In this document: piece by piece, positions 109 to 48,532 of the stretch
Position numbering within the stretch: position 1 is the first letter of the stretch
Layout of the letters: each line of letters begins with the position of its first letter
DNA from: an uncultured bacterium
GTDB lineage: Bacteria > Poribacteria > WGA-4E > DTYX01 > CAZRLY01
NCBI GenBank assembly: GCA_964601015.1
Contig: CAZRLY010000004.1
Span: forward strand, 1 to 53,014
Reading direction: 5' to 3'
Length of the DNA stretch: 53,014 nucleotides
Program-made: the position numbers and the translations under genes
Notes under the pieces: model-generated
Databases searched by the model: none
What the model was told of the DNA's origin: nothing
Seen by the model: only the letters and a program-made list of their open reading frames with translations

Positions 109-651
109 TTGAGACCAAGCCGTATCGAAACCAAAAGGAAACCTGTCTCCCCCAAAATAGAGATGAAAGACAAAGCAATTATCATAATATTATCTCTTTG
201 TCTTGTAACATGCGGAGTTTTTTGGTATCAACTTCGTAACATAAAGGTAAGCAAGATGAGCGTCGATAAAAAAACAAACACTCCCAACAAGAGTAAAGTC
301 GAACAAATTCTCATCTCAGCGGATAACGTTATTTCCACGGTGCGTGTGGAAAACACTTCTTTTCAATTACCTTCCGGAACTAACCCTTTTAGGATACCTG
401 CGCGTAGAGTAAAAAAGACTCAGACAATACAAGCAAAGAGTGAGAGGGTAATATCTGCTGAACAGGTTATTGCCGGCATCAAATTGTCAGGAATAAGCTG
501 GAATAGCACATCCCCCCTTGCTGTAATTGACAGTAAGATTCTCAAGAACGGCGACATTATACCCGGCTCAAAAGTCAAAATTAAAGATATACAACCCACT
601 TCAGTAATCGTGACTTATCAGAACAAAGAATATACACTACAATTCAGATAG
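109..651 (+). CDS. PilP/GspC-HR-like secretin-associated membrane protein. ORF opens at TTG 109; ATG 163 is the more likely start.
   Basis: One N-terminal TM segment (AIIIILSLCLVTCGVFWY), an NPF motif, and a C-terminal beta-rich segment (IKLSGISWNSTSPLAVIDSKILKNGDIIPGSKVKIKDIQPTSVIV) of the kind seen in PilP/GspC. Sits directly upstream of the secretin. Confidence 0.5.
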   Translation: MRPSRIETKRKPVSPKIEMKDKAIIIILSLCLVTCGVFWYQLRNIKVSKMSVDKKTNTPNKSKVEQILISADNVISTVRVENTSFQLPSGTNPFRIPARRVKKTQTIQAKSERVISAEQVIAGIKLSGISWNSTSPLAVIDSKILKNGDIIPGSKVKIKDIQPTSVIVTYQNKEYTLQFR

Positions 652-695
652 CTAAAAGATTGGGAAATTAACTCTACCCAACTTTACCCAAGAAC

Positions 696-3600
696 ATGGA
701 AGGAAGAACTTATCCCCGCAGACTATATTTAGTCATCCTATGTCTCTGCCTATGGTTAGGAACATGGAGGTTGGATAACCAGAACTTTGTGTTTTGTCCG
801 CCCCTTTGCTGGGCTGAGACAACAGCATCCACTAACCTTACCAGCGACTCTTCGTCGGAGCAAAGCGGTAAATCTCAGGCGAATACACCTGCGAAGGAAA
901 ACAAATTGACCGCTATCACCGTCGATAAGATTTCCGACGAACAGGTTACTGTAAAATTGTCTACCCTCTTGTCGCCCAGATATGGTAGTATACTCATCCC
1001 ACCAGCAAAAGACAAGAATATATGGTATTTTGCAATAAACATCATCGAAGCCAAACTGGAAGTCCTCCCTTTAAGTAGTTCCGATTCCCCTCAAATATTC
1101 GAGAAACCACTTGCTCATTCACAGGACGAAGACAGAGGCTCGTCCCTACTAAAGAGGATAAGAGCCACTCAGTTCAAATACAATCCACCGATAGCCCGTG
1201 TCGTCTTTCATTTGACCGCGCCCCTCACACCGAATATTACCGTTATAGAAGATGGACTCCTCGTCGTTTTTCAAAAAGCGAAAGAAGGACAGTCGAAGCC
1301 TGCTATTCAAAAGGATTTACCACCGCCCGAAAATACTAAAAACATTAGCAAACTGACCGCTGTAAATGTCGATATTTCCGATGAGTACATTTCCATCGCA
1401 TTTGTCGTCGGACACAATCCGACGTACAAATCCGGATTGCTGCCCGACAAGGAAAAAAGCAGATTCTACTTTTACCTGAACCTTCAGAATACCCAGAGTT
1501 TCGTCGCCGGCGGGAAATTATTTAAGCAAGAGATAAAAGACAACAACCTGACGCGGGTTATGGTATCTCAGTACAAAAGGGAGCCGCCGATGACGCGGAT
1601 TGTCTTTTATCTTAACAAATTTGTCAAACCGCAGATATCGTTTCGTGCTCGTGAACAAACGAAATTTGTTTCCACCGCTAAAGCGGAATTGCGGCAAAAA
1701 CCTGGGAACGCGGATACGGACATAAGTTTGAAAACAACCCCAGCATTGATGGGCACAAAGCGAAAGATAGTATCCGAATTAGTCGTAAAATTCCCGCGCG
1801 CAGAAGGAAAAATGGCAGGAGGGCAAAAAGACGAAAGTGCAAAAGAGCAAGAGAGCAAAGGGACAACTACCCCTTCGCCCCCCGATTCATATCCTAAGCG
1901 AGCGGCCAGTAAACTGACAGAGATTAAAATAGATGACAAAACACTGAACCACATTACAATTCAACTGATACTAAATGGGATACCAGATTACAGGACGGTT
2001 TTGATGCCGGTTGACCGAACAAAAACCGTCGGTGCTGTCACTTCTTACTTTTACATCAATTTTCTTAATACTACCGTAGAAAGAGATAAAATATTTAAAA
2101 AGGACATCTCCGTAAAACCGCTGAAAAGCGTAAGAGCAGTACAATACAGGAAAAACCCTCCCGTAGCGCGGGTGATATTTGACATAAGTGATGCTATAAA
2201 ACCTGACATCGAAGAGAAGGGCTATCAATTAATTGTAAAATTCCCTAAAACAGAACGCGAAAGAGTACCCGTGAAGACGGTAGCGCAGACGAAAACGCAA
2301 GATACTCAACAAGATGCGAATACAGAAACGCTGCCTTTTTCACCATCGGATGGCGGCGGACAAAAACACCCACTTCCCGAACCCCCCGTAACAGTCGACG
2401 AAACGCCACCGCGCCCAGATGATATGAACGCCACAAGAAGTGGTGTTGGGGGCCAACGCCCCAACACAAATGCTCAGAAACCTGACTCAACTTCCGTTCA
2501 GAGCGAATCAGAAGAACAAAGCGATAGTGCCCGTAGCGAAGCAGAAACGCCAAGCAGCTTTTCACCGACGAAAAAACAATTAGCGACAATCACAAATATA
2601 ACTGCGGAAGTATTGCCAGAGGAAACCGCATTGAATATTGACATCGAAGGGGAAATCAAATTGCTCCAGGCGACGTATGTTGTACGCAACGAAGCAGAAG
2701 AACAAAGCGGTGGTTCTGAAAAGCTCGCTTCGCCCCTTAGAGAGACGGTATTCAGTCTCAAGCTCGAAAACACTATCACCAAAACGCTCCAGCAAATCAA
2801 TCTCAACGAAGGTGTCATTCGTAATGTTATCCTAAGTCCCTCAGAAGGCGACGAAAAAAATATGGAAGTTTTAGTCCGCCTATCAGAAAAAGTACCGCAT
2901 AGCGTAAACAGTACCGATGTTAGTTCCCAGTCCATAGTGCAGCAAAGGGACGAAGCGACTATTCGCCGACGGTTAGTGGTCAAATTTGAAAATCCACCTC
3001 TCGAACGACTGGTATCCTTGAAGTTCGACAAGGAAAATCTTAGCACGGTGATGCTGATATTATCGCAACAATACGGCGCAAACATCATCGCAGGAAGCGA
3101 CGTGACGGGGCAAGTTTCTATCCACGCTACCAAGGTGCCGTTAAAAGAAGCGTTGCTGCAGATTTTGCAAGCGGAAGGTTATACATACATTCAGGAACCT
3201 GGCGGTTTTCTAAGGGTTCTAAAAGATGAAGGGAATGAGAAAGCGGTAACAACCCAGGAGCCAAAATTGCGTAGAAGGGTGATAGAGCTAAAATATGCCC
3301 TCGCTACTGAGTTGGAAGAGAGCCTACAAAAAATTTTTTTAGGCGAAAAAAGCAACATCGTAGCGGAGAAACGTACTAATTCGCTCATTGTGACAGATAC
3401 AGAAGATTCTCTTGCCGAACTTGAGGAAATAATCGCTCAATTAGACAAAGAAGCCTCATCCGTTTCCACAGAGAGAACCCTTTCAGCTAAGGAGGGTAAT
3501 TCTGAAACACAAGATAAAGAAGCCAAACCTCCGCTGATAAAACGGATTTTGCGCCTGAGTTACATCTCCCCTGATGAAGCATCTGCGTATGTACAACCAC

Positions 3601-4520
3601 TGTTATCGGAAAATGGCTCACTGTTGATTATTGATGGCGGGCACACAGGTGCCGCCTCTACGGGCATCTCCGCCCGGGGTGGAGCGTCAACTACCGGTTC
3701 TTCGTTCCAGAACAGTGGGCAAAATGGAACTGATTCGCAATCCGGCAGCCTTGCCTTAGGCGGCACGATGATGGTAACGGACACTGAAGAACGCCTTGAA
3801 GCAGTACAAGAAATTATTGAGCAGATTGATGTCTCCATACCACAAGTTGAGATTCAAGCATACATAGTCGAAGGAACCATAACTGACCAAGATAACTTAG
3901 GCATTGACTGGCGTGTAATAGCTGACCAAGGCGGGAGTGAACTAAACGCAAGTTTGCCGTTTGGCGGAGATTTTCCCGCGTTAAATTTGCAAATTGGCAA
4001 TCTGTCAGTGGACGATTTCATCGGTGTTCTAAAGATTCTCTCCGCTCACACCGATACAAAAGTATTATCCAGTCCCAAGATAATGACGATTGGAAATAGG
4101 CCGGCTACCTTCACAAGCGGTGACCAAATTCCCTATACGGAACTCTCTATAACTCAGGACACTGATACAATCGCCACAACAAGTTTTAAAGATACAGGCA
4201 TCATCTTACACGTTACCGCAATGGTGAAGAGGGATAATCGGGTAAGTTTAACGGTAAACACCGAAGTTAGCGATGTCGCCGGCTTCACTCCCGCAGGACA
4301 ACCGCGCATCTCACAGCGCAAAGCCACAACGCAGGTTCTGGTCAAAGATGGCGATACGGCTGTCATAGGCGGACTTATAATGGAACGTGCAGATGAAACA
4401 GTATCCAAAGTGCCGATTTTGGGTGACATTCCACTGTTAGGCAGGTTGTTCCGAACGACAAATAAGAAAAACGTGAAGAGTGAAGTAACGATATTTATTA
4501 CGCCAAGGATTGTTAAATGA
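696..4520 (+). CDS. pilQ: PilQ/GspD-family outer-membrane secretin with multiple N-terminal AMIN-like modules
   Basis: Signal-like N-terminus. Three clear and one degenerate ~100-aa modules end in motifs RATQFKYNPPIARVVFHL, SQYKREPPMTRIVFYL and RAVQYRKNPPVARVIFDI. Two secretin-N (NolW-like) domains follow, then a C-terminal secretin core (VLSSPKIMTIGNRPATFTSGDQIPY, VPILGDIPLLGRLFR, EVTIFITPRIV). Confidence 0.85.
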   Translation: MEGRTYPRRLYLVILCLCLWLGTWRLDNQNFVFCPPLCWAETTASTNLTSDSSSEQSGKSQANTPAKENKLTAITVDKISDEQVTVKLSTLLSPRYGSILIPPAKDKNIWYFAINIIEAKLEVLPLSSSDSPQIFEKPLAHSQDEDRGSSLLKRIRATQFKYNPPIARVVFHLTAPLTPNITVIEDGLLVVFQKAKEGQSKPAIQKDLPPPENTKNISKLTAVNVDISDEYISIAFVVGHNPTYKSGLLPDKEKSRFYFYLNLQNTQSFVAGGKLFKQEIKDNNLTRVMVSQYKREPPMTRIVFYLNKFVKPQISFRAREQTKFVSTAKAELRQKPGNADTDISLKTTPALMGTKRKIVSELVVKFPRAEGKMAGGQKDESAKEQESKGTTTPSPPDSYPKRAASKLTEIKIDDKTLNHITIQLILNGIPDYRTVLMPVDRTKTVGAVTSYFYINFLNTTVERDKIFKKDISVKPLKSVRAVQYRKNPPVARVIFDISDAIKPDIEEKGYQLIVKFPKTERERVPVKTVAQTKTQDTQQDANTETLPFSPSDGGGQKHPLPEPPVTVDETPPRPDDMNATRSGVGGQRPNTNAQKPDSTSVQSESEEQSDSARSEAETPSSFSPTKKQLATITNITAEVLPEETALNIDIEGEIKLLQATYVVRNEAEEQSGGSEKLASPLRETVFSLKLENTITKTLQQINLNEGVIRNVILSPSEGDEKNMEVLVRLSEKVPHSVNSTDVSSQSIVQQRDEATIRRRLVVKFENPPLERLVSLKFDKENLSTVMLILSQQYGANIIAGSDVTGQVSIHATKVPLKEALLQILQAEGYTYIQEPGGFLRVLKDEGNEKAVTTQEPKLRRRVIELKYALATELEESLQKIFLGEKSNIVAEKRTNSLIVTDTEDSLAELEEIIAQLDKEASSVSTERTLSAKEGNSETQDKEAKPPLIKRILRLSYISPDEASAYVQPLLSENGSLLIIDGGHTGAASTGISARGGASTTGSSFQNSGQNGTDSQSGSLALGGTMMVTDTEERLEAVQEIIEQIDVSIPQVEIQAYIVEGTITDQDNLGIDWRVIADQGGSELNASLPFGGDFPALNLQIGNLSVDDFIGVLKILSAHTDTKVLSSPKIMTIGNRPATFTSGDQIPYTELSITQDTDTIATTSFKDTGIILHVTAMVKRDNRVSLTVNTEVSDVAGFTPAGQPRISQRKATTQVLVKDGDTAVIGGLIMERADETVSKVPILGDIPLLGRLFRTTNKKNVKSEVTIFITPRIVK

Positions 4521-7378
4521 ATTACGAATTACGAATTACGAACTACAAATTAAAAGAAATCGCAAAGAACCCCACGCACTCTGCTCCACGCTTTCCGCTC
4601 CACGCTTTTCGCTCTACGCTTTACGTCCTTTTGGCTTTCTGGCTTTCTATCTCGCCAGTATACGCCGCGCAAATTTTACACGTTGATGTCACCCACAACC
4701 CCGATGCTGTTCCATTGAACATCGGCGATGTGCTTCACTTCAAAGTGGAAACAGACGGAACAGGCGAAGTGACAGTGGATATTGGGACGGTACGTCAAGG
4801 GATAAAACTGCGAGATGACGGCACAAACGGGGATGCCGTTCGCAGCGATAACAGCTATGAACTAAACTATAACATTCTTGCCGGCGATACAATTGAAGAT
4901 GGCCCCATCATCGCGTATTTCACATCGGCAGACGGCAGTAAAACAACAAGCGACAGAGATTTAACTCCCCTTCTTACCATTGACGCGACGCGGCCAATAA
5001 TCACAAACGATGGAGTACGTCCCAATCCGTTCAACCCTAACAAGCAGATGGCTTATATATACTATACATTGACTGAAAAGTGCAATGTGGCAATAGACAT
5101 CTCATTTAAGGATGGTAAACTGATACGAACGCTGGCAAATCCACCATCAGACTATGGCGAGAATCAAGCAGCGTGGAATGGGACAGATGAGACGGGAAGG
5201 ATATTGCAAGATGCTCAGTATACATATTTGATAAGCGCCGCTGACCAAGCGGGAAATGAGGCTGAACCAACCAGCGGGGGCGTTATTCTGAGTACGGCAG
5301 AGATGAATATCAACAACTCTGTAGTAGCACCCAACTCATTTTCACCCAACGGTGATAACGTCAACGACGTAACGCGTATAAGTTTTGACCTTTTTCTGTT
5401 TGCTAACAGGGAACAATTATTGGCTCTGGGACTGGGAAACGAAAATACATTGACTGTGACGGATTTAGACGATGATATTCCAACTCCTTATGCACTGGTA
5501 GGTATAACAGTTTTGGATGCGACTGGAAACGTAGTTCACATAATCAACTGCGATTTAAATAAGGATAGCGATACGGACTTTGCCCCAAACGGTTGGCCGG
5601 ATGGACGAAGTCCTGTTGATATCCCCTTAGGTTCCGGCAACGTTCTCGGCGAGCCTGGCGGGTTGCCGGATTACGGCGACGAGGACAAAACCAACGATTG
5701 GGATACGCTGATACCGCTAAATGAGGATTTAGGCACGGATACATACAGAGCCGGCTTTAGTTTCGTATGGGATGCCAAAGACGTGCCAGACGGCACCTAT
5801 CTCATAAACATTATCTGCGAATTGGTCAGCCGAGCGTGGCTTTTTACGGGTGACAAACTCGAAGGCGAAAGAATCATCGGTCAAAGGTGGCACGCTATAC
5901 CCACCTATCATTATGGGATAACTGCTCCTCCTATCACAAAAACCGTCACAATCGACAGAGGCGATGTGATTGGTGTAGACGACGACGCACCCATTGCAGC
6001 ATCAACTGAACCAAGCAACGGTACAATAATTGACCCATCTGAAAAGCAGATTACAGAAATTTCCGCAGTGTTAGATGATGGCGCAGGTGGGAGTGGAGCG
6101 GACTTGAGCGCCTCGACGATAACCCTGATAAATCCGGTGGGCAACAGACAGAAAGGAATTCAAAAACCTTTCGACATGAACACCATAAAATTGGTACTGG
6201 ACGAACCCCTACACGCAAGCGGCGAATATACAATCAGCATCATAACAGTGGACAAACTTGGGAATAAAAGCCAGCCTATTGAATTCAAATTTACCATCAA
6301 AGATACCAGCCCTCCCACGGTAGTGCCGAATACGATTGCACCAGCACCGAACACACCTGATAACCCTCATACGAAGTCTATTTCTGAGATTAGCGTTGTG
6401 CTAACTGACGGGTTGACCGGTTCCGGCGTGGATTTGAGCTCATCCGCGTTGCTGCTAAAAGACTCAGCAAACACAACGATAGGGGGGAAAGTATCCTCCG
6501 ACGACAAAAGCACACAAATAACGTATACCTTAACAAAACCGCTGAAAACCAACGGCACTTATACCATAGTCGTTATTGCCGCCGATAAGGCAGGCGCGCA
6601 AGCTATTTACAACTACGAATTTACGTTAAATTTAGAAGAAAACATAGCAATCAGTTTCAATGGACAGGACTATGCGATTATCTACGCAGACACTTCTATA
6701 CTTTCACCGCCAGGGCTTGCCCAAACGCATATCACAGTCGAAGTTGTAGAGGTGAATCCGCCGGCCGGTTCACCTCCGCAACCGGCGATTCCTGCGGAAT
6801 TAAATCAATTGGGCAAAGCGATTCGATTTCAGCCGAGAAACGTATCCTTTTCCAAACCGATAGAAATTATAATGCCCTACGACGCAAAGGCATTACCATC
6901 TTCCGTTGATGTTGAATCGCTAAAGTTGTACGGTTACAACAATCAGGCGAAAAATGACGGCGCTTTAACAGAAGCCACCGGTTGGCAGCAGATTGCAAAT
7001 GTTAATGTCCAAACAGAGGAGAACCACCTGAATGCAAAAGTCACACAACTCGACGAATACTATGTTGTCGCCTATCTGCGTACGGCCGAAGACGTCCTTG
7101 CTCAAGAGGTCAAATTATCAAGCAACCATTTTTACCCACTACGCGATGAATCTCTCACAATAACATTTCCCAATACCGCCAGTGAATATCGCGCAGAAAT
7201 CTACAACATTGCCGCGGAACTAATTCGCACGCTTACTTCGCCAAATAATTCAGTCACCTGGGACGGCAGAAACGAAGACAACATGGTAGTTAATCACGGT
7301 ATCTACATCTTACGAATCCGATATACGGAAAATGGACGGGTATATCTGCAACACAAATTAGCAGCAGTAATAAAATGA
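4517..7378 (+). CDS. Secreted Ig-repeat surface protein with FlgD-Ig / T9SS type-A-sorting-like C-terminal domain
   Basis: ATGA overlap with the secretin stop. Signal peptide (LLAFWLSISPVYA/AQ). NPFNPN and FSPNGDNVNDV FlgD-Ig-like motifs. Two ~100-aa modules of the same type as the giant ORF (ITEISAVLDDGAGGSGADLSASTITL...GEYTISIITVDKLGN...DTSPPTV). The C-terminal ~85 aa (LTITFPN...AEIYNIAAELIRTL...VTWDGRNEDN..VNHGIYILRI...KLAAVIK) resemble a Por_Secre_tail. Confidence 0.8.
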   Translation: MNYELRITNYKLKEIAKNPTHSAPRFPLHAFRSTLYVLLAFWLSISPVYAAQILHVDVTHNPDAVPLNIGDVLHFKVETDGTGEVTVDIGTVRQGIKLRDDGTNGDAVRSDNSYELNYNILAGDTIEDGPIIAYFTSADGSKTTSDRDLTPLLTIDATRPIITNDGVRPNPFNPNKQMAYIYYTLTEKCNVAIDISFKDGKLIRTLANPPSDYGENQAAWNGTDETGRILQDAQYTYLISAADQAGNEAEPTSGGVILSTAEMNINNSVVAPNSFSPNGDNVNDVTRISFDLFLFANREQLLALGLGNENTLTVTDLDDDIPTPYALVGITVLDATGNVVHIINCDLNKDSDTDFAPNGWPDGRSPVDIPLGSGNVLGEPGGLPDYGDEDKTNDWDTLIPLNEDLGTDTYRAGFSFVWDAKDVPDGTYLINIICELVSRAWLFTGDKLEGERIIGQRWHAIPTYHYGITAPPITKTVTIDRGDVIGVDDDAPIAASTEPSNGTIIDPSEKQITEISAVLDDGAGGSGADLSASTITLINPVGNRQKGIQKPFDMNTIKLVLDEPLHASGEYTISIITVDKLGNKSQPIEFKFTIKDTSPPTVVPNTIAPAPNTPDNPHTKSISEISVVLTDGLTGSGVDLSSSALLLKDSANTTIGGKVSSDDKSTQITYTLTKPLKTNGTYTIVVIAADKAGAQAIYNYEFTLNLEENIAISFNGQDYAIIYADTSILSPPGLAQTHITVEVVEVNPPAGSPPQPAIPAELNQLGKAIRFQPRNVSFSKPIEIIMPYDAKALPSSVDVESLKLYGYNNQAKNDGALTEATGWQQIANVNVQTEENHLNAKVTQLDEYYVVAYLRTAEDVLAQEVKLSSNHFYPLRDESLTITFPNTASEYRAEIYNIAAELIRTLTSPNNSVTWDGRNEDNMVVNHGIYILRIRYTENGRVYLQHKLAAVIK

Positions 7379-8334
7379 ATATTATCTTTATGAAAAGCTT
7401 GCTCCTTATTCTACTTATCACTTTCATATCAACATCGCTTTGTTATTCCGCAGATTTTGACAGCCATTCCTCAACATTCAGAGGCTCGTTTACTTTCTCC
7501 GGCTTCGCCGCAGGGGTAGGTACGCGCGCTATGGGCATGAACGGGGCGTTTGTGGCCGTATCCGATGATTCCACCGCTCCGTTTTGGAATACATCAGGAC
7601 TTGCCGTCATCGGCTACAAAGAGTTATCTACGATGTATACGGATTTGTACGGATTAGGGCTGATAAGGACAAACGCAGTGGGTATCTCATTTCCCGATAT
7701 AGGTAGTGGTGCCACCGCTGTAAATTGGATACAATTGCGATACGATTTGGAATCATGGCGCGAACAAGCGTTTATCGGTAGTTACGCCAAGAGGATGACC
7801 AGTTTTTCCGCTTTCGGACTAAATGTAAAACACTTCAGGCAATCATCGAACATTGTCACCACAGAGGGTAACACTACCAACGCCAGAGGTTGGGGGCTTG
7901 ATGCAGGGCTTATCGTCAGATTGGGAAAACGCGGGCGATTTGGAATAACCGTACAGGATGCGTACAGCATCATCAATCTTTCATCAGGAGAAAAAGACAG
8001 GATGCCCATAAATTATCGCTCCGGGTTTGCCTACTATCCCCTTTCACGATTGGTAGGTGCAGTTGACGTAATAGGCGAAGAACACATCCCAATAAAATCC
8101 GTTCACGTCGGAGGGGAATACTGGATAGCAAAAAACGATTTAGTTCCGCCGATAAACGAGAAGAACCTCGCCATTCGCGGCGGCGTAGCCAAAGAATTTA
8201 TCGGCAAACAACGAATGACTTATGCCGGTGGCATAAGCATACGCGTCAGTTCATGGCAATTCGACTACGCTTACCTTGCCGATAACGATGGATTAGGAGA
8301 TACACATAGATTTTCGACCTCAGTGAGATTTTAA
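7375..8334 (+). CDS. PorV/PorQ-family-like outer-membrane beta-barrel protein
   Basis: ATGA overlap with the upstream stop. Signal peptide (LLILLITFISTSLCYSA). Signature GTRAMGMNGAFVAVSDDSTAPFWNTSGLA resembles the PorV/PorQ (UPF0164-like) N-terminal motif. Alternating beta-strand pattern and a C-terminal aromatic residue (SVRF). Confidence 0.6.
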   Translation: MNIIFMKSLLLILLITFISTSLCYSADFDSHSSTFRGSFTFSGFAAGVGTRAMGMNGAFVAVSDDSTAPFWNTSGLAVIGYKELSTMYTDLYGLGLIRTNAVGISFPDIGSGATAVNWIQLRYDLESWREQAFIGSYAKRMTSFSAFGLNVKHFRQSSNIVTTEGNTTNARGWGLDAGLIVRLGKRGRFGITVQDAYSIINLSSGEKDRMPINYRSGFAYYPLSRLVGAVDVIGEEHIPIKSVHVGGEYWIAKNDLVPPINEKNLAIRGGVAKEFIGKQRMTYAGGISIRVSSWQFDYAYLADNDGLGDTHRFSTSVRF

Positions 8335-8341
8335 GTTAATT

Positions 8342-8430
8342 GGCGGGTAGGGGGAAAACTAACATGACAAACGACAGTGAATAGTGAAGAAAAATGCTCT
8401 GCACCATTGGTTTTCTCCCCCATACCCGCC
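8342..8430. repeat. Long imperfect hairpin (G-arm GGCGGGTAGGGGGAAAAC / C-arm GTTTTCTCCCCCATACCCGCC), followed by a T6 run at 8441-8446
   Basis: The arms at 8342-8359 and 8410-8430 are reverse complements apart from two 1-nt bulges. The loop is about 50 nt. Lies between the PorV-like gene and gspF. Confidence 0.75.
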
Positions 8431-8475
8431 CTACGATGATTTTTTCAGCAGATACTAATTTAAGGAAGTTTCATC

Positions 8476-9552
8476 ATGAAGAATTCGACTCGCCCCTTTA
8501 GGCGTAAAAAAAAGATAACCACAAACGACATCATATTCTTCAACCGTCAATTAGCGTCAATGATTAAGATGGAGATGCCGGTGGTAGACAGTTTAGCGGC
8601 AATAGCTAAGGAAACACAGAATAAAGAGTTTAAAACTACTATAGAGATGGTAAAAAGCGATATAGAAATGGGCAGCACCATTTCTGAAGCGTTTGCCAAA
8701 TTTCCCAACGTTTTCCCTGAGTTATATGTAAGCATGATAAGGGCGGGAGAAGAGAGCGGTGATTTGCCTACGATATTAGACGAATTATCCAAATACTCAG
8801 AATCAATGGCGATGTTGGAAAGGAATGTCAAGACAGCCTTGATTTATCCAGCTATGATAATGGGGATTACCTGCATAATGTTAATTTTGTTGATAATTAT
8901 TGTAATTCCCATGTTTGCTAAACTCTATGCGGAAGCGGGTGCCAGTCTCCCCGCTTTGACGCTGATAGTATTGGATATAAGTGCATCATCAAAGCGTTAT
9001 TTCCCGATTATCGTCGCGCTTATTGTTTGTATGATATTACTCTGGCGGCTTCTTTGTCGCAACGAAAAAATACGCGCCGCAGTGGACAACTTCAAACTTT
9101 CCATACCCATCTATGGAAAATTGTTAAGGTATGCGGCATTATGGCGTTTTTCGCGTACGCTGGGAGCGCTGCTCAACGCCGGAGTGCCAATGCTTAACTC
9201 GCTATCTTTGGTAAGCGCAACCAGCGGCAACAAACGCATATCTCAGGCGGTTGATAGGATAAAACAACAGGTAAACAAGGGTGAAGATTTTGGCAAGGAG
9301 TGCGAAGCAACGGGCGTTTTTCCTACTACGATGACGTATATGATTGCGATGGGTACTGCTACGGGCAAGCTAAATGAAGCGCTCATAGGGCTGGCGGATT
9401 TTTTTGACCTACAGGTAAATACAACCTGTAGACGTATCTCGGTGGCGATTGAACCGGTGCTGTCGGTAATTGTAGGCATTTTCATCGGGTTTATTATTCT
9501 CAGCCTGTATCTCCCCATATTCAGTTTAGCAGTAAAAATAGGGGGAGGATAA
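8476..9552 (+). CDS. gspF: Type II secretion / type IV pilus platform protein (GspF/PilC family)
   Basis: AAGGAAG Shine-Dalgarno 8 nt upstream. Two T2SSF-type halves (FNRQLASMIKMEMPVVDSL...ELYVSMIRAGEESGDL and FSRTLGALLNAGVPMLNSL). Three predicted TM segments. Confidence 0.85.
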   Translation: MKNSTRPFRRKKKITTNDIIFFNRQLASMIKMEMPVVDSLAAIAKETQNKEFKTTIEMVKSDIEMGSTISEAFAKFPNVFPELYVSMIRAGEESGDLPTILDELSKYSESMAMLERNVKTALIYPAMIMGITCIMLILLIIIVIPMFAKLYAEAGASLPALTLIVLDISASSKRYFPIIVALIVCMILLWRLLCRNEKIRAAVDNFKLSIPIYGKLLRYAALWRFSRTLGALLNAGVPMLNSLSLVSATSGNKRISQAVDRIKQQVNKGEDFGKECEATGVFPTTMTYMIAMGTATGKLNEALIGLADFFDLQVNTTCRRISVAIEPVLSVIVGIFIGFIILSLYLPIFSLAVKIGGG

Positions 9553-9585
9553 GACAAATTGCCCCTTTCAGAAGGGGAGGAAAGT

Positions 9586-11154
9586 ATGTCTGAAGCGAAG
9601 AAACTAAACGAAACTAACTATCAAAATATCGAACTGACTGACGAGGGGATTATATTCAAGCGGCGCGGTTTTCTTCGCAGCATTCGTTCGGCTGTCGCAT
9701 ATAGCGATGTTGAAACCGTCATGCTAAATGAGAAAGATAAACGGCTTGCTATTCTCAAAAAGGATGGGGAGTTATTATCTATCAAAAAAGGGCTTATTGC
9801 CCGTTGCAGGCGGATGACGGATGAATTACATAAAATAATTTCCGAGAAAGTAGAAAATGCAAAGGCAAAGTTAATGTGGCAGAGCATTCCGCTTCAATTT
9901 GATGTATTAAATCAGCAGATTAACGAACTTGTGGTTGAGGGAGACAAGATGAACGTATGTGATTTAGCCGAACTGCTCCTGATTCAATCCGTATGCCATG
10001 GTGCCAGCGACATTCACATTGAACCGCATCAATCCCCTTCTCATCGTGATGGGGATAACAATGCCAGTCTGTGTCAACCCACCTCCCTTGTGAGAGGGGG
10101 ATTAAGAGTACGCTACCGGATAGACGGTTTCTTTCGTGACATCGCTTATATTCCAGGACACATCAAAAACAGATTAATCTCGCGAATAAAGGTTATCTCA
10201 AACCTTATCATCTACAAACACAACATTCCACAGGAGGGGAGCATTCGTTTAACGGTGGATGGATTGAGCGTGGATTTCAGGGTATCCATCATCCCCACTA
10301 TTATGGGCGAAAAGATAGTCATCAGAGCTTTTGATATTTTGGGTGCCTCTCGGAAGGCGGGAAACGAGATTGGCTCATCCGGGCAAAAGGCGGAAGAATT
10401 GCGTCCTCTATTTACTTCTGAAGGGAAGAACGAAGCGGTAGTTGATGTCTTATTTTTAGAATCCCTTGGCTTTACCGATGATGTGCTAAAGGGCTTTGAA
10501 TCGTTGATACTTCAAAATCAAGGGACGATTATTCTGACCGGCCCTTCTGGTAGCGGCAAGACAACAACTCTCTACTCAGCTTTGCGTCGGATACATCAGG
10601 TTAGAGGCGATAGCGTAAGCATCGTTTCCATAGAAGACCCGGTCGAATACAACCTCGAAGTGGCCAACCAGATTCAGGTGGATACACATAACGGATTGAC
10701 CTTCGCAAAAACCTTAGCTTCTGTGTTACGTCAGGACCCGGAGGTTATAATGGTGGGGGAGATACGCGACCCGGAGACTGCTGAAATAGCGATTCAAGCG
10801 GGGTTGACAGGGCATTTAGTGCTAACAACTGTCCACAGCGGAACAGCAGCGGGTGTATTTACGAGATTGCTTGACATGGGTTTGGAACCGTTTTTGGTAG
10901 CATCGTCGGTCAGAGGTATAGTAGCGCAACGTCTTGTGCGCCGTAAGACGATGACAAACTACAAGGGACGTACAGCAATCGCTGAACTATTGAGCGTCAC
11001 AGATGACATCAGGGAACTTATCATGAAGAGAAGCACTACCGGTGTTATTGAAGAAAAAGCACGCGAGTTGGGAATGCAAACCCTGAAAGAAAACGGACAC
11101 CAAAAAGTAGAAAATGGCATTACGACAGAGGAAGAACTTATTAGAGTTCTGTAA
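9586..11154 (+). CDS. gspE: GspE/PilB-family secretion ATPase with atypical features: non-canonical N-terminus, two internal insertions, and no tetracysteine motif
   Basis: GGGGAGG SD 5 nt before ATG 9586 (the ORF itself opens at TTG 9559). Motifs present: ASDIHIEP, RYRIDG, Walker A GPSGSGKTTT, Asp box SIEDPVEY, Walker B DPEVIMVGEIRD, His box GHLVLTTVHS. Confidence 0.85.
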   Translation: MSEAKKLNETNYQNIELTDEGIIFKRRGFLRSIRSAVAYSDVETVMLNEKDKRLAILKKDGELLSIKKGLIARCRRMTDELHKIISEKVENAKAKLMWQSIPLQFDVLNQQINELVVEGDKMNVCDLAELLLIQSVCHGASDIHIEPHQSPSHRDGDNNASLCQPTSLVRGGLRVRYRIDGFFRDIAYIPGHIKNRLISRIKVISNLIIYKHNIPQEGSIRLTVDGLSVDFRVSIIPTIMGEKIVIRAFDILGASRKAGNEIGSSGQKAEELRPLFTSEGKNEAVVDVLFLESLGFTDDVLKGFESLILQNQGTIILTGPSGSGKTTTLYSALRRIHQVRGDSVSIVSIEDPVEYNLEVANQIQVDTHNGLTFAKTLASVLRQDPEVIMVGEIRDPETAEIAIQAGLTGHLVLTTVHSGTAAGVFTRLLDMGLEPFLVASSVRGIVAQRLVRRKTMTNYKGRTAIAELLSVTDDIRELIMKRSTTGVIEEKARELGMQTLKENGHQKVENGITTEEELIRVL

Positions 11155-11213
11155 TTATGTGCGTAAAATATACTGAGCGCGATTGGGTTTTGTGTCTTTG
11201 GGAATATGACAAG

Positions 11214-11237
11214 TAAAGAGTAATGAGTAACAAGTAA
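11214..11237 (+). repeat. Heptamer TAA ladder (AGTAAAG AGTAATG AGTAACA AGTAAAA)
   Basis: TAA occurs at 11214, 11221, 11228 and 11235, an exact 7-nt period. The 19-nt core AGTAAAGAGTAATGAGTAA is identical to 49892-49910. Confidence 0.85.
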
Positions 11238-11291
11238 AATTATTACTTTTTACAGAAAACAGGCGAAAAAGCTCCCGCATTCACGCGTGGA

Positions 11292-11314
11292 GTCAATCTT
11301 CAATCCATTCACTC
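11292..11314 (-). repeat. Copy of the TGA-ladder element (core TCAATCTTCAATCCAYTCAC as read on the plus strand)
   Basis: The 20-nt core at 11293-11312 differs by 1 nt from 45811-45830. It is the reverse complement of the element at 37864-37898. Confidence 0.8.
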
Positions 11315-11354
11315 TTTACTTTCCACAAATCTAATCTGCGCTCTTTTAATTATC

Positions 11355-14300
11355 ATGAAAAAAACAATACTTATTCTAATTATTATTTTCATCTCTTCAT
11401 CGTTCTGTTATTCAGCGACGATATCTCAGTTACAAATCAGCCCCAATCCACTTTCACCGGACGGAGATAAAAATGAGGACACATGCAAAATATCCTTTAT
11501 GTTAGATGTACCGGTAGACGTAATCATTCGCATTAGCGATAGGGCTGACAATGTCGTCTTAGAGGACAAGCGGAAGCGTAAAAGTGGTTTAAACGAATAC
11601 GTTTGGGAACCAGGCGCGGGAACACTAAGCGATGGAGACTATACGGTAAACATCATAATAGACGGGGAAACGAAAGCGTCAAGCAGTGTAACTATTGATA
11701 CGCAACCCATTATCAATTTTTTCGTAGCGAACGGGCTCAGTCCCGTTCTGCCCAACCCTTTCTCTCCCGATGGAAATGGCATCAATGATAGTTTGACCAT
11801 ACGGTATCGCTTGGCGATTCGGTCGAAGGTATTCATAAACATAGACAATGGCTCTATAATTCTGGATTTGGGCACTGTTGATGCAGGGACTAATGAATAC
11901 ATTTATACGCCTGCAGTTGACACATTCCAAAATGATGGAATACATCAGCTTGAAATAGTCGCAGACACAGATAACGATGGTATTGATGAATTTGACCCGA
12001 AGACGGAATCATACTCTGTTCGCGTCGACATAGCCGGTCCGAGGATTACCAACCTCCGCACAGAACCTGATTCACTTTCGCCATCTTCAGGGGAAGTAGA
12101 AGATAACGTCTCTATAACCATCAGTTTTAATCTCTCCGAAAATGCACTGGTTAGCATCCTGATTAAAGACGCATCGCATAACGAGCTTTTATCGGATACT
12201 CGTATGCGCGATGCCGGCTTAAACTCTTACGTTTGGGAGTTTGGGCAGCCAATTGGCGATGGGTTATATACAATCCTCGCCGTAGCAGATGAAGGCAAAA
12301 ACGGCATTGATGATGACGAACAAATAACGACGCATTTACTCGTAACGGATGTTCCTGCGGCGAATATAATCACCAATATTTCAGTAAACCCCAATCCGTA
12401 TTCTCCAAACAAACACGATAAGGTTGATATTACCTTTGTATTGTCAAACGACGCAAACGTTCAGATAAAACTGTCAGGTGCGATTATTGACGAATACCAA
12501 CAACGCCGAGCAGGCATCAATAAGTTTCTCTTCACCCCAACTGGTATCCCCGACGGCATACATGAAATAGCCATCAATGTTGATTTTAATGGCGATGGAA
12601 CAGCAGATAAACAAATAACCACCGCTTATGTAATTGACTCTACACCCCCAATAATTAGCAACATATCCGTTTTCCCTTCTCGCCTCTCGCCGAATGGTGA
12701 TGGGCTAAATGATTTCGCTGAAATAAGTTTCATGGTATCAGGAACCAGCCCACAGCCCATACCACCGTCTGTTGACCCAAATGGCAGCGTTGGAATATTT
12801 GAATTCGATGACGAAGGTTCAGGTAAATGGCTTTCGGCACCGCCATTGCCGATTCCAGCAGGAGCCAGGTTGTCTGTCACACCATTAGCAGCCCCCGAGG
12901 AGACGATATCACTCACAATCAGCGGGACATACAGGGGCAGTGTGGTAACCGATGAGATAGGGCTGCTCGAAGGAGAAATGCTCTCCAAAATCACCCTCAG
13001 TGCATACGACTCAGTTACTGACATAACAGATGTAAAAGGTGCCAACGTTGGGGAGAAAATTTGGATAGCTTGGTTCACGGGAAATGTCGCCGTAAACATC
13101 TATACTCAGGAAGGTGAGCTTAAAACAATTGTCTTAGTTAAACCGAGTTTTCACGGAGACGGGCTATACCGCGCAGAGTGGCTGCCCTCTGAATTCATAG
13201 AAGACGGAAATTATATATTCAGAATCATAGCCCAAGACGATGTCGGCAACTCTTCACAGCAATCAGGCGGTATCTCTACCAGCAGAACCTCAATAGAGAT
13301 AAAAAATCCGAACGTCTCCTCCAAACGCATTTCGCCCTTGGAACAAGATACCATAACCGATGAATTGATTATCTCGTTTGAACTATCCAAACCAGGTACT
13401 GTCACAGCAAAGATATTAGATTTGCATCAGACTCCGCCTGAAGAAGTGCGAATACTATCACCGCAAGAGGGTACTCCCCTGAACTATACTGTTGTCTGGG
13501 ATGGAAAAGATGAGGATGGCTTCTATGTCTGTCTCTTGGGGGATACAGGCATTGAGAAAACCTACAGTTTTACCATTGCCGCCATAGATACTGAGACATC
13601 AGACGTAGTGGAATATAATGGCACTGTAATAGTCGATAACGAAAGGCCATCTGCCCCTACTGTAAAGATATCTCCGCCGAACAACAGAGACGAAGGCATG
13701 GAAAATCAGCCTACTAATCAGACGGAGATAACAGTAAAGGGAGTTGCTGAACCAGCGAGCACGGTGGAGATAAAGATAGATGGAGTCATAATTGGCAGCG
13801 TAGCAGCAGACAGCGCGACCGGTGAATATAGCATGCCGGATATCTCCATCACGGAAGGCATGCACAGGATAACAGCGCGGGCTATTGATAGTGCAGGCAA
13901 CCGTGGAACGGAAGCGTATGTGGAGGATGATTCTCTGGCTGAACGAGGGTATTACAACGAAAAGGGAGTTTACATAAAGGGGTATTACGTGGTGGATATA
14001 ACAAAACCTACCACGAATATCAAGAACGTTTTGTTCAAGAACGTCTTGGGGGAGGAGGAAATGTCGGAATATATTTCGTTAGGTTGGTATTCCTCTTCGG
14101 TGACGATAAACTTAACCGCAGAAGACAATTACTCTAAAGAAGGTAAAATTGATACCTTCGCAAAAGCGATAAGACTGGAGGATGCTCAAGAACAAACGCC
14201 GCCTACCGAAGAAGACCTAACGGATAGCATTATAATCGAAGAGGATGGCATTTATGAGTTGAAATATTTTTCCAGAGATGCCGCGGGGAACATAGAAGAG

Positions 14301-37965: not shown

Positions 37966-38245
37966 TAAGGTATTGGAGTATTGGGGGTTTGGGGTATTGG
38001 GGTTAAAGAAGGTATTGGGGGAGTGGGGCATTGGGGTAATGGGGAAAAAGAAGGTAATGGGGTTTTGGGGCATTGGGGGGTTGGGGGAAAGACTTATGAT
38101 AACCAAAGTTTTTCCCCCATTACCCCATTACTCCATCACCCTAATGCCTGCTTTTAATGCCCCATCACCCCATTCCTCCAATACCCCATTACCTTTTTCA
38201 CTCACCCCATTACCCCATTGCTCCATCACCCCAACACCTTACCAC
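37966..38245. repeat. ~280-nt imperfect inverted repeat: a G-rich arm of degenerate GGGGYATT/GGGGTAAT octamers facing a complementary C-rich arm
   Basis: The G-arm (37966-38090) and the reverse complement of the C-arm (38108-38245) share starts (GTAAGGTRTTGG), internal blocks (GAAAAAGAAGGTAATGGGG vs GAAAAAGGTAATGGGG; one-base A indel) and ends (GGGGGAAA/TTTCCCCC). More than 15 G4+ runs sit on one arm. Confidence 0.8.
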
Positions 38246-38343
38246 TATTGTGACATTCGTGGTTTCAGGAATGGGAAATTACAAACCTAACTTGGTAGAA
38301 GTCGTCCGGCTTTCCGGTCCGTCTGGTTTAGGAAGGATTGAAA

Positions 38344-38919
38344 ATGATCAAAAAAATACTTGTAGACGCTTTATTTGCCGCATTAAAGATACGCGATGAA
38401 TATACGGCAGAACATTCCTTGCGAGTAGCTGAATATGCTTTTACCATGGCTAAGAGATTGAGATTGCCCGAAGAGGAACTTGAAAGTGCAAGGATTGCCG
38501 GTTTACTCCACGACATCGGAAAAATCGGAGTTTCCGATTCAATCTTGCTCAAAGCGGGCAAACTGAGTGAATGTGAATTTTCAATTATGGAAAGACACTG
38601 CAAATTCGGAAGAGAACTCCTCTCCCAAATTGTGTTGTTAGAGGATGTAGCGCCGGCAATCTATCATCATCACGAACGATGGGACGGAAAAGGGTATCCT
38701 GCCGGACTGTCGAAGAAAAGAATTCCACTGCTATCGCGGATTGTTGCAGTAGCAGAGACTTTTGATTTAATGACAGCAGGAAGCCTATATCGCGAAATTG
38801 TTAACGTTGACGCCGCACTCGAAGAACTGGACAGGTGTAGTGGAACTCAATTTGACCCTGAGGTGGTAAAGATTTTTAAAGAGTACATTCGCAACTCAGA
38901 TTTAAGATGTGAAACGTAA
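38344..38919 (+). CDS. HD-GYP domain c-di-GMP phosphodiesterase (stand-alone)
   Basis: GGAAGG SD 6 nt before ATG 38344. Motifs: HSLRVAEYA, AGLLHDIGKIGV, HHERWDGKGYPAGL. Confidence 0.85.
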   Translation: MIKKILVDALFAALKIRDEYTAEHSLRVAEYAFTMAKRLRLPEEELESARIAGLLHDIGKIGVSDSILLKAGKLSECEFSIMERHCKFGRELLSQIVLLEDVAPAIYHHHERWDGKGYPAGLSKKRIPLLSRIVAVAETFDLMTAGSLYREIVNVDAALEELDRCSGTQFDPEVVKIFKEYIRNSDLRCET

Positions 38920-39052: not shown

Positions 39053-39161
39053 AGTAATGAATTCAGCATTCATCATTTCCAAAATTGGTAAGGAGCACAG
39101 AGAGCCTTCCAATTAAATGCAGCATTGGTCATACAGCATTCTTTTAATCGGGGTAAGTAAA

Positions 39162-48361: not shown

Positions 48362-48503
48362 ATTTGCAAGTAACCCACCTTTTTCTAAACAACTGTCGTT
48401 TGCGATTTTAAATTATATAATGAATAGTCGCCGATGTAAAGGAAAAATTATCTGTTCGGTTCAGAAACCAAGTTTTTGGGAAAAACTTGGTTTCTATGTA
48501 CTA

Positions 48504-48532
48504 TTGACAGGGAAAACACCTTGTGATATAAT
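48504..48532 (+). promoter_or_regulatory. Consensus sigma70-type promoter: TTGACA-N17-TATAAT with extended -10 TG
   Basis: TTGACA at 48504-09, TG at 48524-25, TATAAT at 48527-32. Lies ~56 nt upstream of the kinase start codon. Confidence 0.7.

Follow-up and report, generated by a model that had tools for sequence, protein, structure and literature searches.

Does an operon that combines a type IV pilus/type II secretion system (T2SS)-type machine with giant surface proteins, and with outer-membrane barrels resembling the cargo shuttles of the Bacteroidota type IX secretion system (T9SS), encode one export and anchoring apparatus or two unrelated functions? The question arises from a 53,014-nucleotide stretch (here, the window) of contig CAZRLY010000004.1 (assembly GCA_964601015.1), from an uncultured, probably Poribacteria-related bacterium. 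A first-pass annotation based on the sequence alone had described a co-directional block encoding a PilP/GspC-like protein, a PilQ-type secretin, a 953-aa Ig-repeat protein with a type-A-like T9SS C-terminal domain, a PorV/PorQ-like barrel, GspF, GspE, and an 8,837-aa protein with a type-B (CHU_C)-like C-terminal domain. That observation was confirmed: all seven open reading frames (ORFs) exist on the + strand and match the proposed families, although the two C-terminal domains and the barrel score below the curated T9SS cut-offs of NCBIfam.

The PilP/GspC-like ORF (109-651) probably starts at the ATG at position 163, and the resulting 162-aa product (163-651) is the one on record. It has an N-terminal membrane or lipid anchor, gives only weak T2SSB, T2SSC, and GspC hits (24.1, 19.8, and 18.4 bits, all below cut-off; GspC cut-off, 101.6), and directly follows PilO in the source contig as the last gene of the PilM-N-O-P alignment set; its orthologs occupy the same position in relatives. 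The secretin (696-4520; 1,274 aa) comprises a signal peptide, three tandem AMIN-like repeats (aa ~66-540; z-scores of 18 to 22), N0/STN, Secretin_N (76.1 bits), and the secretin core (Pfam Secretin, 162.7 bits). The Pfam AMIN match scored 23.7 bits (gathering score, 20.5), whereas the matches to TIGR02515 PilQ (257 bits; cut-off, 284) and TIGR02517 GspD (252.9 bits; cut-off, 351) were both below cut-off. The secretin is of the PilQ type, with AMIN repeats. GspF (8476-9552; 358 aa) is an inner-membrane platform protein of the GspF/PilC type (T2SSF, 197.5 bits; GspF, 293.6 against 424; PilC, 281.5 bits, also below the equivalog cut-off). The GspE/PilB-type ATPase (9559-11154; 531 aa, or 522 aa as called by JGI) scored 303.6 bits for T2SSE, 373.5 for GspE (cut-off, 630), and 332.6 for PilB; it has an unassigned N-terminal region of ~180 aa and lacks a tetracysteine Zn-finger, with no CxxC motifs, unlike its paralog (see below) and the PilB encoded upstream.

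The window contains the 3' part of a pilus-type operon. The first-pass annotation noted no pilin or pseudopilin gene, and a motif scan confirmed that there is no prepilin motif in the window. However, two prepilin-type genes (GLTMIE and GFTLME motifs; weak GspH/J, PilV, and ComGE hits) and two large PilX/GspK-like genes lie 5 to 10 kb upstream on the same contig, and a PilB/MshE ATPase carrying an MshEN domain, PilM (PilM_2, 133.7 bits), PilN (29.5 bits), and PilO (45 bits) are also encoded just upstream of the window. PilM, PilN, PilO, a PilP-like protein, and an AMIN-bearing secretin are therefore encoded together, as in type IVa pilus machinery. No major pilin, prepilin peptidase PilD, or retraction ATPase PilT was identified in the 63 kb examined, although they may lie elsewhere in the genome.

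The 953-aa protein (4517-7378) overlaps the secretin stop codon (ATGA, 4517-4520). It ends in an FlgD_ig domain (61.2 bits for the family over the whole protein, in two stretches, the best at residues 880-938), also matches CHU_C (32.7 bits), and does not reach the cut-off of the type A sorting domain model (TIGR04183, 17.6 bits against 23); its ortholog at one relative's locus, L005, scored 20.6 bits for Por_Secre_tail, below 27. The tail keeps a basic residue and a hydrophobic C-terminus, [KR]L[IV]AV[VI][KR]. Full-length orthologs (45 to 75% identity) occur only in this clade, and the protein is the best-conserved product of the block, with about 46% identity over its full length across clades (E = 0). 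We considered a PorU-like sortase or a PorZ-like propeller, but both were rejected because the AlphaFold2 (AF2) model is a string of Ig-like beta-sandwiches with no enzyme fold and a Foldseek search returned only generic multi-Ig matches.

The adjacent barrel gene (7375-8334) overlaps the stop codon of the Ig protein gene (ATGA, 7375-7378). It has no Pfam hit; the NCBIfam PorV/PorQ family model NF033709 scored 73.6 bits (E = 2e-20; cut-off, 90), and the PorV equivalog NF033710 only 20.8 bits. The AF2 model (pLDDT, 85.5) is a 14-stranded barrel with an N-terminal plug-like segment. Its best match among solved structures is chain F of 8gl6 (TMq, 0.65), the 367-residue FadL-like barrel chain of the T9SS SprA-PorV-substrate (RemA-CTD) complex, read as PorV (PMC10994853), followed by the FadL family (FadL/TodX).

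The giant ORF (11355-37868) is intact and encodes a protein with a Sec signal peptide, Ig-type domains throughout, and CHU_C/FlgD_ig-like domains at the N-terminus, internally, and at the C-terminus (type-B-like tail ending GTIVVAR). The tail scored 48.7 bits for Pfam CHU_C (gathering score, 27) but 26.6 bits for TIGR04131 over model positions 6-84 of 85 (cut-off, 35) and 16.1 bits for TIGR04183. A sequence search of the C-terminal domains of both the 953-aa and the giant proteins against PDB chains gave only a marginal FlgD hit (E = 0.012) and spurious repeat hits, with no match to solved T9SS C-terminal domains.

A second barrel gene, missed in the first-pass annotation, lies 1.2 kb downstream of the giant gene (39117-40526, +). 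Its product, which may be the partner of the giant protein, is a PorV/PorP-like barrel (aa ~36-330) fused to C-terminal TPR repeats (aa 345-466). It scored 46.6 bits for the PorV family and 20.3 bits for the PorP family (TIGR03519; cut-off, 90.55), both below cut-off, with no Pfam PorP_SprF (PF11751) hit at E <= 0.001, and is 27% identical to the first barrel. Its TPR part gives weak hits to the secretin pilotins PilW and Tgl. Two genes with predicted c-di-GMP functions are also found downstream of the giant gene: an HD-GYP-type (HD_5, 136.7 bits) phosphodiesterase-like protein (38338-38919, +; NosR-family c-di-GMP phosphodiesterase, 143.6 bits, below cut-off) and a REC-GGDEF response-regulator diguanylate cyclase (40686-41651, +; GGDEF, 149.9 bits; Response_reg, 95.8 bits).

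To determine whether this arrangement is more than a chance association, we examined the neighborhoods of barrel homologs; conservation in relatives had been set beforehand as a test. The order PilM-PilN-PilO-PilP-secretin-Ig protein (~900 to 960 aa, FlgD_ig)-barrel-giant CHU_C protein is kept in every relative with enough flank, namely, in loci L005, L008/L020, L009/L010/L015/L026, L013, L014, L018, L021, L023, L024, and L031. These represent about 14 barrel-homolog lineages differing by more than 15% in barrel sequence, with barrel identity down to 43% and small intergenic gaps; the orthologous giant genes encode 4,443 and 4,621 aa with CHU_C. The apparent lack of ORFs downstream of the barrel in L005 is an artifact, as the giant ORF runs off the end of the locus. 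The named relatives are "Candidatus Poribacteria" metagenome-assembled genomes, a group filed by NCBI among the candidate phyla, Bacteria incertae sedis; a scan of genome contigs returned only four loci, none from the window's own genome. GspF and GspE lie between the barrel and the giant gene in the window (in L031 they are followed by a cut ORF), but this placement is seen only in the window's own sub-lineage. In the sediment clade, no ATPase, platform, or pilin gene lies within 10 kb. More distant barrel homologs (27 to 33% identity; L011, L012, and L027) are stand-alone barrels without secretin neighbors, and L036 has a barrel-TPR gene followed by a gene for a large beta-helix protein. The linkage is clade-specific.

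A paralogous locus (L028/L029/L030/L032) was found in the same samples as the window's contig (GC, 0.448; tetranucleotide correlation with the window, 0.87). Its gene order is giant protein with CHU_C (69.7 bits)-PilT-like ATPase-GspF-GspE-PorP_SprF+TPR barrel-secretin, and it lacks the 953-aa protein. Its barrel-TPR protein passes Pfam PorP_SprF (37.6 bits; gathering score, 22.3) and is 39% identical over its full length to that of the window; each of the five shared parts is 33 to 46% identical to its window counterpart (46% for GspF). L032 first appeared to be an independent lineage with the GspF-GspE-barrel/TPR-secretin arrangement but is the same species as L028 (96 to 98% identical). Loci L033 to L035 carry GspF-GspE only.

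The interpretation offered in the first-pass annotation, a dedicated export or anchoring apparatus mixing parts of both systems with the barrel as shuttle or anchor, is partly supported. The two sets of parts are co-encoded in a conserved neighborhood, and the barrel has a predicted PorV/FadL fold; on the other hand, one of its own refuting conditions, a complete canonical T9SS elsewhere in the genome together with secretin and GspE/F genes that belong to an ordinary pilus operon continuing upstream, is half fulfilled: the secretin belongs to a pilus-type operon that continues upstream. Our preferred, still tentative, explanation is a composite envelope apparatus. In this view, a type-IV-filament engine of type IVa architecture, including the upstream minor-pilin/pseudopilin-like proteins and a second, GspE-type ATPase, would be coupled to a display module following T9SS-style logic, in which Sec-exported Ig-repeat proteins carrying beta-sandwich C-terminal domains are each paired with a FadL/PorV-fold barrel (the 953-aa protein with the adjacent PorV-like barrel, the giant adhesin with the barrel-TPR fusion). 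The adhesin would cross the inner membrane by Sec and be passed through, or assembled beside, the secretin, powered by the ATPase/pseudopilus; its C-terminal domain would then be captured by a barrel that holds it on the surface, the TPR arm of the second barrel tethering that barrel to the secretin in the way TPR pilotins do. The 953-aa protein and its barrel would be a fixed structural part of the outer-membrane complex, comparable to PorZ-PorQ or PorU-PorV, which keep their C-terminal domains, and c-di-GMP would set activity through the MshEN domain of the upstream ATPase and the HD-GYP and REC-GGDEF proteins. The identities of the components, the barrel fold (from the model), the conserved synteny, and the paralogous locus are what our analysis shows, whereas physical coupling, the role of the secretin as conduit, tag-barrel binding, and c-di-GMP control are inferred.

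The main rival is only slightly less plausible: an ordinary type IVa pilus (the upstream pilins, PilB/MshE, PilMNOP-Q, and GspF), used for adhesion, twitching, or DNA uptake, beside an independent adhesin/anchor module exported by a T9SS encoded elsewhere or by an unknown pathway, the genes staying together because both serve surface attachment and share c-di-GMP regulation. The engine architecture, with separate PilM, PilN, PilO, and PilP and AMIN repeats, usually builds pili rather than secreting proteins; the sediment clade resembles classical stand-alone pilMNOPQ operons; no secretin is known to export a protein approaching 8,837 aa; barrel-cargo pairs without a secretin nearby (L036) and stand-alone barrels show that the barrel module does not need one in general; and a hairpin with a T-run separates the barrel from gspF. 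The tags resemble T9SS tags, yet FlgD_ig/CHU_C-like domains that are also internal and N-terminal may be plain structural Ig modules. Against this rival stand the synteny kept down to 43% barrel identity, the ATGA overlaps suggesting translational coupling of secretin, Ig protein, and barrel, and the paralogous locus, in which a PorP/SprF+TPR barrel gene is wedged between GspE and the secretin, downstream of another giant CHU_C gene. Moreover, T9SS has been reported only for Bacteroidota and, putatively, other FCB phyla (PMC11285876), and the named relatives belong to Candidatus Poribacteria, which is not among them.

It is unlikely that the 953-aa protein and its barrel are merely accessories of the pilus secretin (a collar, stabilizer, or pilotin-like factor similar in function to TsaP, PilF/PilW, or Tgl), with the giant protein an unrelated neighboring adhesin. 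The strong conservation of the Ig protein, which behaves like a structural subunit rather than a fast-evolving adhesin, its overlaps with both neighboring genes, its lack of an enzyme fold, and the weak PilW/Tgl hits of the second barrel fit this reading, but the giant gene follows the barrel in every lineage with a long enough flank, the paralogous locus keeps barrel-TPR, secretin, and a giant protein without the 953-aa protein, and no secretin accessory is known to have a PorV/FadL-fold barrel. Still less likely, the barrels themselves would act as type V-like translocators or insertion sites, their unfolded partners being threaded with BAM help and staying attached by their C-terminal domains. 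Barrel genes do adjoin genes for large secreted proteins in several contexts (the Ig protein/barrel overlap and L036), and FadL-family barrels have lateral openings; however, PorV and PorP/SprF are shuttles or anchors in T9SS, not translocons (PMC10994853; PMC12618676), the modeled barrel has a plug-like segment, and the conserved link to secretin and ATPases would remain unexplained.

Literature searches on secretins with PorV, on Poribacteria with T9SS or other secretion systems, and on PorV2 found no description of such a locus. In the T9SS, type A domains pair with PorV and type B domains with an adjacent PorP/SprF-like shuttle, as in sprB-sprF (PMC12618676; PMC9143113), a pairing that parallels the one proposed here for Sec-dependent proteins encoded near FadL/PorV-fold barrels; here, however, the neighbors are a secretin, PilMNOP, and GspE/F, and one barrel is fused to TPR repeats. 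No SprA/Sov, PorK/L/M/N, PorU, or PorZ was found among the ORFs scanned in the block, its flanks, and the 10 kb upstream, although a core elsewhere in the genome is not excluded. Compared with type IVa pilus operons such as those of Myxococcus or Pseudomonas, the operon is extended by three conserved genes (Ig protein, barrel, and giant adhesin) that no described operon of this type carries, and there is a second ATPase. A type-IV-filament engine plus secretin could move folded periplasmic proteins out, as in pilus machines that also secrete proteins (Vibrio TCP/TcpF, Francisella, and Dichelobacter), and C-terminally tagged T2SS cargo (GlyGly-CTERM/rhombosortase) can stay on the surface. At this locus, canonical GspC/L/M are absent, PilM/N/O being present instead of GspL/M, the putative cargo is an order of magnitude larger than known T2SS substrates, and the anchoring partner would be a barrel rather than a lipid or sortase-type modification. 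In Omnitrophota, conserved gspD/E/F-type loci with class III signal-peptide proteins, and with c-di-GMP-related genes nearby (pilZ there; HD-GYP, GGDEF, and MshEN here), sit beside giant genes (West-Roberts et al., bioRxiv 10.1101/2023.11.21.568195; also 10.64898/2026.06.07.730766), but those giants carry many transmembrane regions and SecA-like domains, whereas the giant here is a Sec-signal Ig-repeat protein with a CHU_C tail and putative partner barrels; PorV is mentioned in neither preprint, and T9SS, type IX, and CHU_C are not mentioned in the 2026 preprint.

T9SS-type C-terminal domains and PorV/PorP-type barrels are treated as hallmarks of a Bacteroidota/FCB-specific system that uses SprA, and secretins and GspE/F as hallmarks of T2SS and type IV pili. 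A coupled system in a different candidate phylum would show that the tag/barrel anchoring module can work with another translocon, which would inform how T9SS originated, and would extend the link between giant surface proteins and type-IV-filament machines first noted in Omnitrophota. In its boldest form, which we consider doubtful but of great interest if true, this would be a previously undescribed class of export and display system in which the secretin-based engine translocates giant adhesins and hands their C-terminal domains to dedicated barrels, one docked to the secretin by its TPR arm; the sorting module would then be older than, or independent of, the SprA translocon. This would also explain how FlgD_ig/CHU_C-tailed giant proteins, common in uncultured phyla, leave cells without a T9SS. 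If the main rival is right, the locus remains a clear example of a pilus operon co-inherited with adhesin/anchor modules. The locus defines a barrel-TPR family and a conserved ~950-aa partner protein.

Among non-coding features, a search of the intergenic regions revealed no c-di-GMP or other riboswitch, and Rfam detected only two tRNAs. The hairpin between the barrel and gspF (8342-8430, +) is a long stem-loop (about 20-bp stem) followed by a T-run, present as a single copy in the window, and is a possible terminator or attenuator (fold of 8330-8480, -40.6 kcal/mol; z, -3.2). Just after the giant gene lies an imperfect palindrome of about 290 nt (37967-38255), unique in the window and absent from the other loci retrieved, which is built of 8-nt units, (GGGGNATT)n then (AATNCCCC)n (repeat families D1/D2; inverted repeats I1 to I10). 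It has a predicted fold of -208 kcal/mol (z, -11.6), and the apparent ORF at 37973-38290 is probably not a gene but part of this repeat palindrome.

The plus strand between positions 109 and 37868 carries seven consecutive ORFs, and the first-pass annotation, which had described this block as T2SS/T4P-type machinery combined with T9SS-style cargo tags and a PorV-like barrel around a giant adhesin, was correct in what it observed. However, the T9SS labels rest on family resemblance below NCBI's curated thresholds. The first ORF encodes a PilP/GspC-like protein whose real start is probably the ATG at 163; the 162-aa product from that start is on record in public assemblies, and the 180-aa product is not. 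The second (696-4520) encodes a secretin (Pfam Secretin, 162.7 bits; Secretin_N, 76.1 bits) that scored almost the same against the PilQ and GspD models (257 and 253 bits), both below their cut-offs. Its 775-aa N-terminal extension contains three tandem repeats with pairwise alignment scores 18 to 22 sd above those of shuffled sequences, and the second repeat was recognized as AMIN (23.7 bits; gathering score, 20.5), identifying a PilQ-type secretin. The third (4517-7378) encodes a 953-aa protein with Ig-type domains, of which the C-terminal one was assigned to FlgD_ig (61.2 bits for the family over the whole protein), with CHU_C at 32.7 bits; the T9SS type A model reached only 17.6 bits against a cut-off of 23. 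The 319-aa product of the fourth (7375-8334) had no Pfam match but hit the NCBIfam PorV/PorQ family (73.6 bits; E value, 2e-20; cut-off, 90). GspF (8476-9552) and a GspE-type ATPase (9559-11154) were both clearly identified. The GspE-type ATPase has no CxxC...CxxC zinc-finger subdomain and starts with ~180 aa without an assigned domain, whereas the four cysteines are retained in its 45%-identical paralog (in L028, a locus described below) and in a PilB/MshE ATPase encoded upstream of the window.

The last of the seven ORFs (11355-37868) encodes an 8,837-aa protein with a Sec signal peptide, Ig-type domains throughout, and a C terminus reading GTIVVAR. Its C-terminal domain scored 48.7 bits against CHU_C, which is above the Pfam threshold, but only 26.6 bits against TIGR04131 (cut-off, 35). 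CHU_C/FlgD_ig-like domains with the SPNGDxxND motif are not restricted to C termini: one follows the signal peptide of the giant protein (aa 30 to 76; window 11355-11600), and the 953-aa protein has two more (aa ~165 to 260 and ~262 to 480), the second of which carries a long beta-hairpin insert. The junctions between the secretin and Ig-protein genes and between the Ig-protein and barrel genes are ATGA overlaps.

The PilP-like protein was also found on a 64-kb JGI contig (L001) that extends 10 kb beyond the start of the window. This stretch encodes two prepilin-type proteins (motifs GLTMIE and GFTLME, with cleavage after the G; N_methyl, GspH/J, PilV, and ComGE-type hits), two paralogous ~530-aa PilX/GspK-like proteins, a 573-aa PilB/MshE ATPase with an MshEN domain (L001 5446-7167), and PilM, PilN, and PilO. 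The statement in the first-pass annotation that no pilin gene is visible holds for the window. The machine as a whole has T4aP architecture. No major pilin, PilD, or PilT was detected in the 63 kb of sequence covered.

The barrel family is large (3,628 representative clusters at an E value of ≤0.001), but only seven clusters reached an E value of ≤1e-30. The close relatives that carry names are MAGs labeled Candidatus Poribacteria, a phylum that NCBI files among the candidate phyla (Bacteria incertae sedis). Context look-ups and a metagenome scan yielded loci from about 14 lineages that differ by more than 15% in barrel sequence. These fall into three subclades, namely, the window plus L031 (81% barrel identity), L004 (about 55%), and a sediment clade of about a dozen lineages (43 to 47% to the window). 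Every locus with enough flanking sequence keeps the order PilM-PilN-PilO-PilP-secretin-FlgD_ig protein (~900 to 960 aa)-barrel, and where the flank reaches further, a giant Ig gene follows (called at 4,443 and 4,621 aa, with CHU_C). The L031 locus has the order of the window as far as GspE, followed by a cut ORF. GspF-GspE lie between the barrel and the giant gene only in the subclade of the window, and no ATPase, platform, or pilin gene lies within 10 kb in the sediment clade. More distant barrel homologs (27 to 33% identity) are not adjacent to secretins.

A second PorV/PorP-like barrel, missed by the first-pass annotation, is encoded at 39117-40526, 1.2 kb downstream of the giant gene (PorV_fam, 46.6 bits; PorP_fam, 20.3 bits; PorQ, 16.8 bits). 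It is 27% identical to the first barrel and is fused to C-terminal TPR repeats. PorV-like barrels with long C-terminal extensions that mostly end in TPR repeats (up to ~800 to 1,000 aa) recur among the metagenomic homologs of the barrel (7 of the 10 long ones scanned have TPR). An HD-GYP-type phosphodiesterase-like protein (38338-38919) is encoded between the giant gene and the second barrel, and a REC-GGDEF cyclase (40686-41651) follows the latter. Together with the MshEN (c-di-GMP-binding type) domain of the upstream PilB-like ATPase, these form a c-di-GMP set surrounding the adhesin.

A search with the GspE-type ATPase led to a paralogous locus (L028 1-14308; also L029 and L030) from JGI samples 3300013117 and 3300009314, which also hold the contig of the window, and 3300009128. 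Its GC content is 0.448 and its tetranucleotide correlation with the window is 0.87, suggesting that it probably belongs to the same genome or a close relative. The order is a giant Ig protein ending in CHU_C (69.7 bits), small genes, a 281-aa PilT-like ATPase, GspF, GspE, a barrel-TPR protein that passes Pfam PorP_SprF (37.6 bits against 22.3), and a 960-aa secretin with N-terminal Ig/FN3-like domains. The small genes include one for a 171-aa lipoprotein, between the giant protein and the PilT-like ATPase; between this ATPase and GspF, the locus encodes a 212-aa membrane protein containing RRRGDCEDRAIVL, whose GDCED motif is reminiscent of transglutaminase-like cysteine peptidases such as LapG, although no Pfam hit was obtained. 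The five shared parts are 33 to 46% identical to their window counterparts, and the two barrel-TPR proteins are 39% identical over their full length. The location of a barrel gene between the ATPase and secretin genes, next to a second giant CHU_C protein, is the strongest single argument that barrel, secretin, and ATPases belong together. The same arrangement in L032, where an IS605 OrfB/TnpB gene sits upstream, does not count as independent because it is from the same species (96 to 98% identity).

The predicted structure of the first barrel (32-sequence alignment; pLDDT, 85.5; pTM, 0.79) has 14 strands preceded by a short helical, plug-like segment. Its best solved match was chain F (367 residues) of 8gl6, the in vitro assembled T9SS PorV complex with the RemA C-terminal domain bound (E value, 1e-9; TMq, 0.65), followed by FadL, TodX, and TbuX. 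By size and fold, this chain is PorV, which binds type A domains with its extracellular loops (PMC10994853). The model of the 953-aa protein (pLDDT, 77.3; low pTM, as expected for beads on a string) is entirely beta, with Ig-like domains plus a long beta-hairpin at 426 to 480. Foldseek returned only generic multi-Ig proteins for this model, giving no sign of a PorU-type peptidase or PorZ-type propellers. Full-length orthologs of this protein (45 to 75% identity) were found only in this clade, and it is about as conserved as, or slightly more conserved than, the other shared genes of the block. Its tail keeps Y896, W915, G917, G928, a basic residue at 947, and a C terminus of the form [KR]L[IV]AV[VI][KR]. 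This resembles the GxY and K-x-x-K end of type A domains, although the resemblance is no more than a lead.

We tentatively favor a composite apparatus in which a type-IV-filament engine with its secretin is functionally coupled to T9SS-style tag/barrel display of Ig-repeat proteins. In this view, the 953-aa protein and its barrel would form a fixed outer membrane component, comparable to PorZ-PorQ or PorU-PorV, which keep their C-terminal domains; the giant adhesin would be the cargo; and the barrel-TPR fusion would be its anchor, held at the secretin by its TPR arm. The TPR region gave weak hits to the secretin pilotins PilW and Tgl, but TPR hits are promiscuous. Activity would be set by c-di-GMP through MshEN on the upstream ATPase, the HD-GYP protein, and the REC-GGDEF protein. 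The identities of the components, the predicted fold of the barrel, the synteny, and the paralogous locus come directly from our analyses, whereas physical coupling, passage through the secretin, tag-barrel binding, and c-di-GMP regulation are inferences. The interpretation in the first-pass annotation is supported in part: the hybrid composition and its conservation are real, but the machine is a T4aP-type operon that continues upstream, and the mechanistic link remains inferred.

Several lines of evidence weigh against the composite reading. T4aP-type architecture usually builds pili, and no secretin is known to export a protein anywhere near 8,837 aa. Barrel-cargo pairs occur without secretins in other lineages: in L036 (8947-13422), an unrelated metagenomic contig, an 847-aa barrel-TPR gene is followed, with no intergenic gap, by a gene for a large right-handed beta-helix secreted protein, and no secretin lies nearby, suggesting that barrel-cargo pairing is a general module beyond this clade. 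Moreover, FlgD_ig/CHU_C-like domains also occur inside and at the N terminus of these proteins, a T9SS core elsewhere in the genome cannot be excluded, and a strong stem-loop (8342-8430; stem of about 20 bp, GGCGGGTAGGGGGAAAAC...GTTTTCTCCCCCATACCCGCC) followed by a T-run lies between the barrel and gspF and may split the block into transcription units. An ordinary T4aP operon lying beside an independently exported adhesin/anchor module is the main alternative and is only slightly less likely than the composite apparatus. It is unlikely that the Ig protein and barrel are merely secretin accessories, and very unlikely that the barrels are type V-like translocators.

The cargo/barrel logic of the locus matches that of T9SS, in which PorV serves type A domains and adjacent PorP/SprF-like shuttles serve type B domains, as in SprB-SprF (PMC12618676, PMC9143113). 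However, the defining translocon and motor were not found in the sequence covered, and the tag and barrel profiles are subthreshold; we therefore do not classify the locus as a T9SS. The engine fulfills the PilMNOPQ/AMIN criteria for T4aP but differs in lacking an identified major pilin, PilD, and PilT and in carrying three extra conserved genes. The thresholds of the canonical T2SS equivalog models were not reached. The nearest published pattern is the conserved gspD/E/F-type locus beside giant genes in Omnitrophota (bioRxiv 10.1101/2023.11.21.568195 and 10.64898/2026.06.07.730766); text searches found no mention of PorV in either preprint, nor of T9SS, type IX, or CHU_C in the 2026 preprint, the only one searched for these. 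Literature searches found no description of a secretin/PorV-type combination or of T9SS parts in Poribacteria. If the secretin is the conduit, the locus would amount to a new class of secretion/display system.

Further downstream, the window encodes a sensor histidine kinase (48210-49910) and, at its 3' end (49953-51298), housekeeping genes that could be used for taxonomic placement, namely, tRNA-guanine transglycosylase Tgt (553 bits), then tRNA-Glu(UUC) and tRNA-Lys(UUU) on the minus strand. Immediately after the 26.5-kb giant gene lies an imperfect palindrome of about 290 nt (37967-38255, covering an apparent ORF at 37973-38290) built from 8-nt units, with (GGGGNATT) repeated about 14 times and then (AATNCCCC) repeated about 14 times. 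It has a predicted folding energy of -208 kcal/mol (z, -11.6), and its G-runs at 8-nt spacing could also form G-quadruplexes. This element is unique in the window and absent from the fetched loci, and it may be a terminator or 3' stabilizer of the giant transcript.
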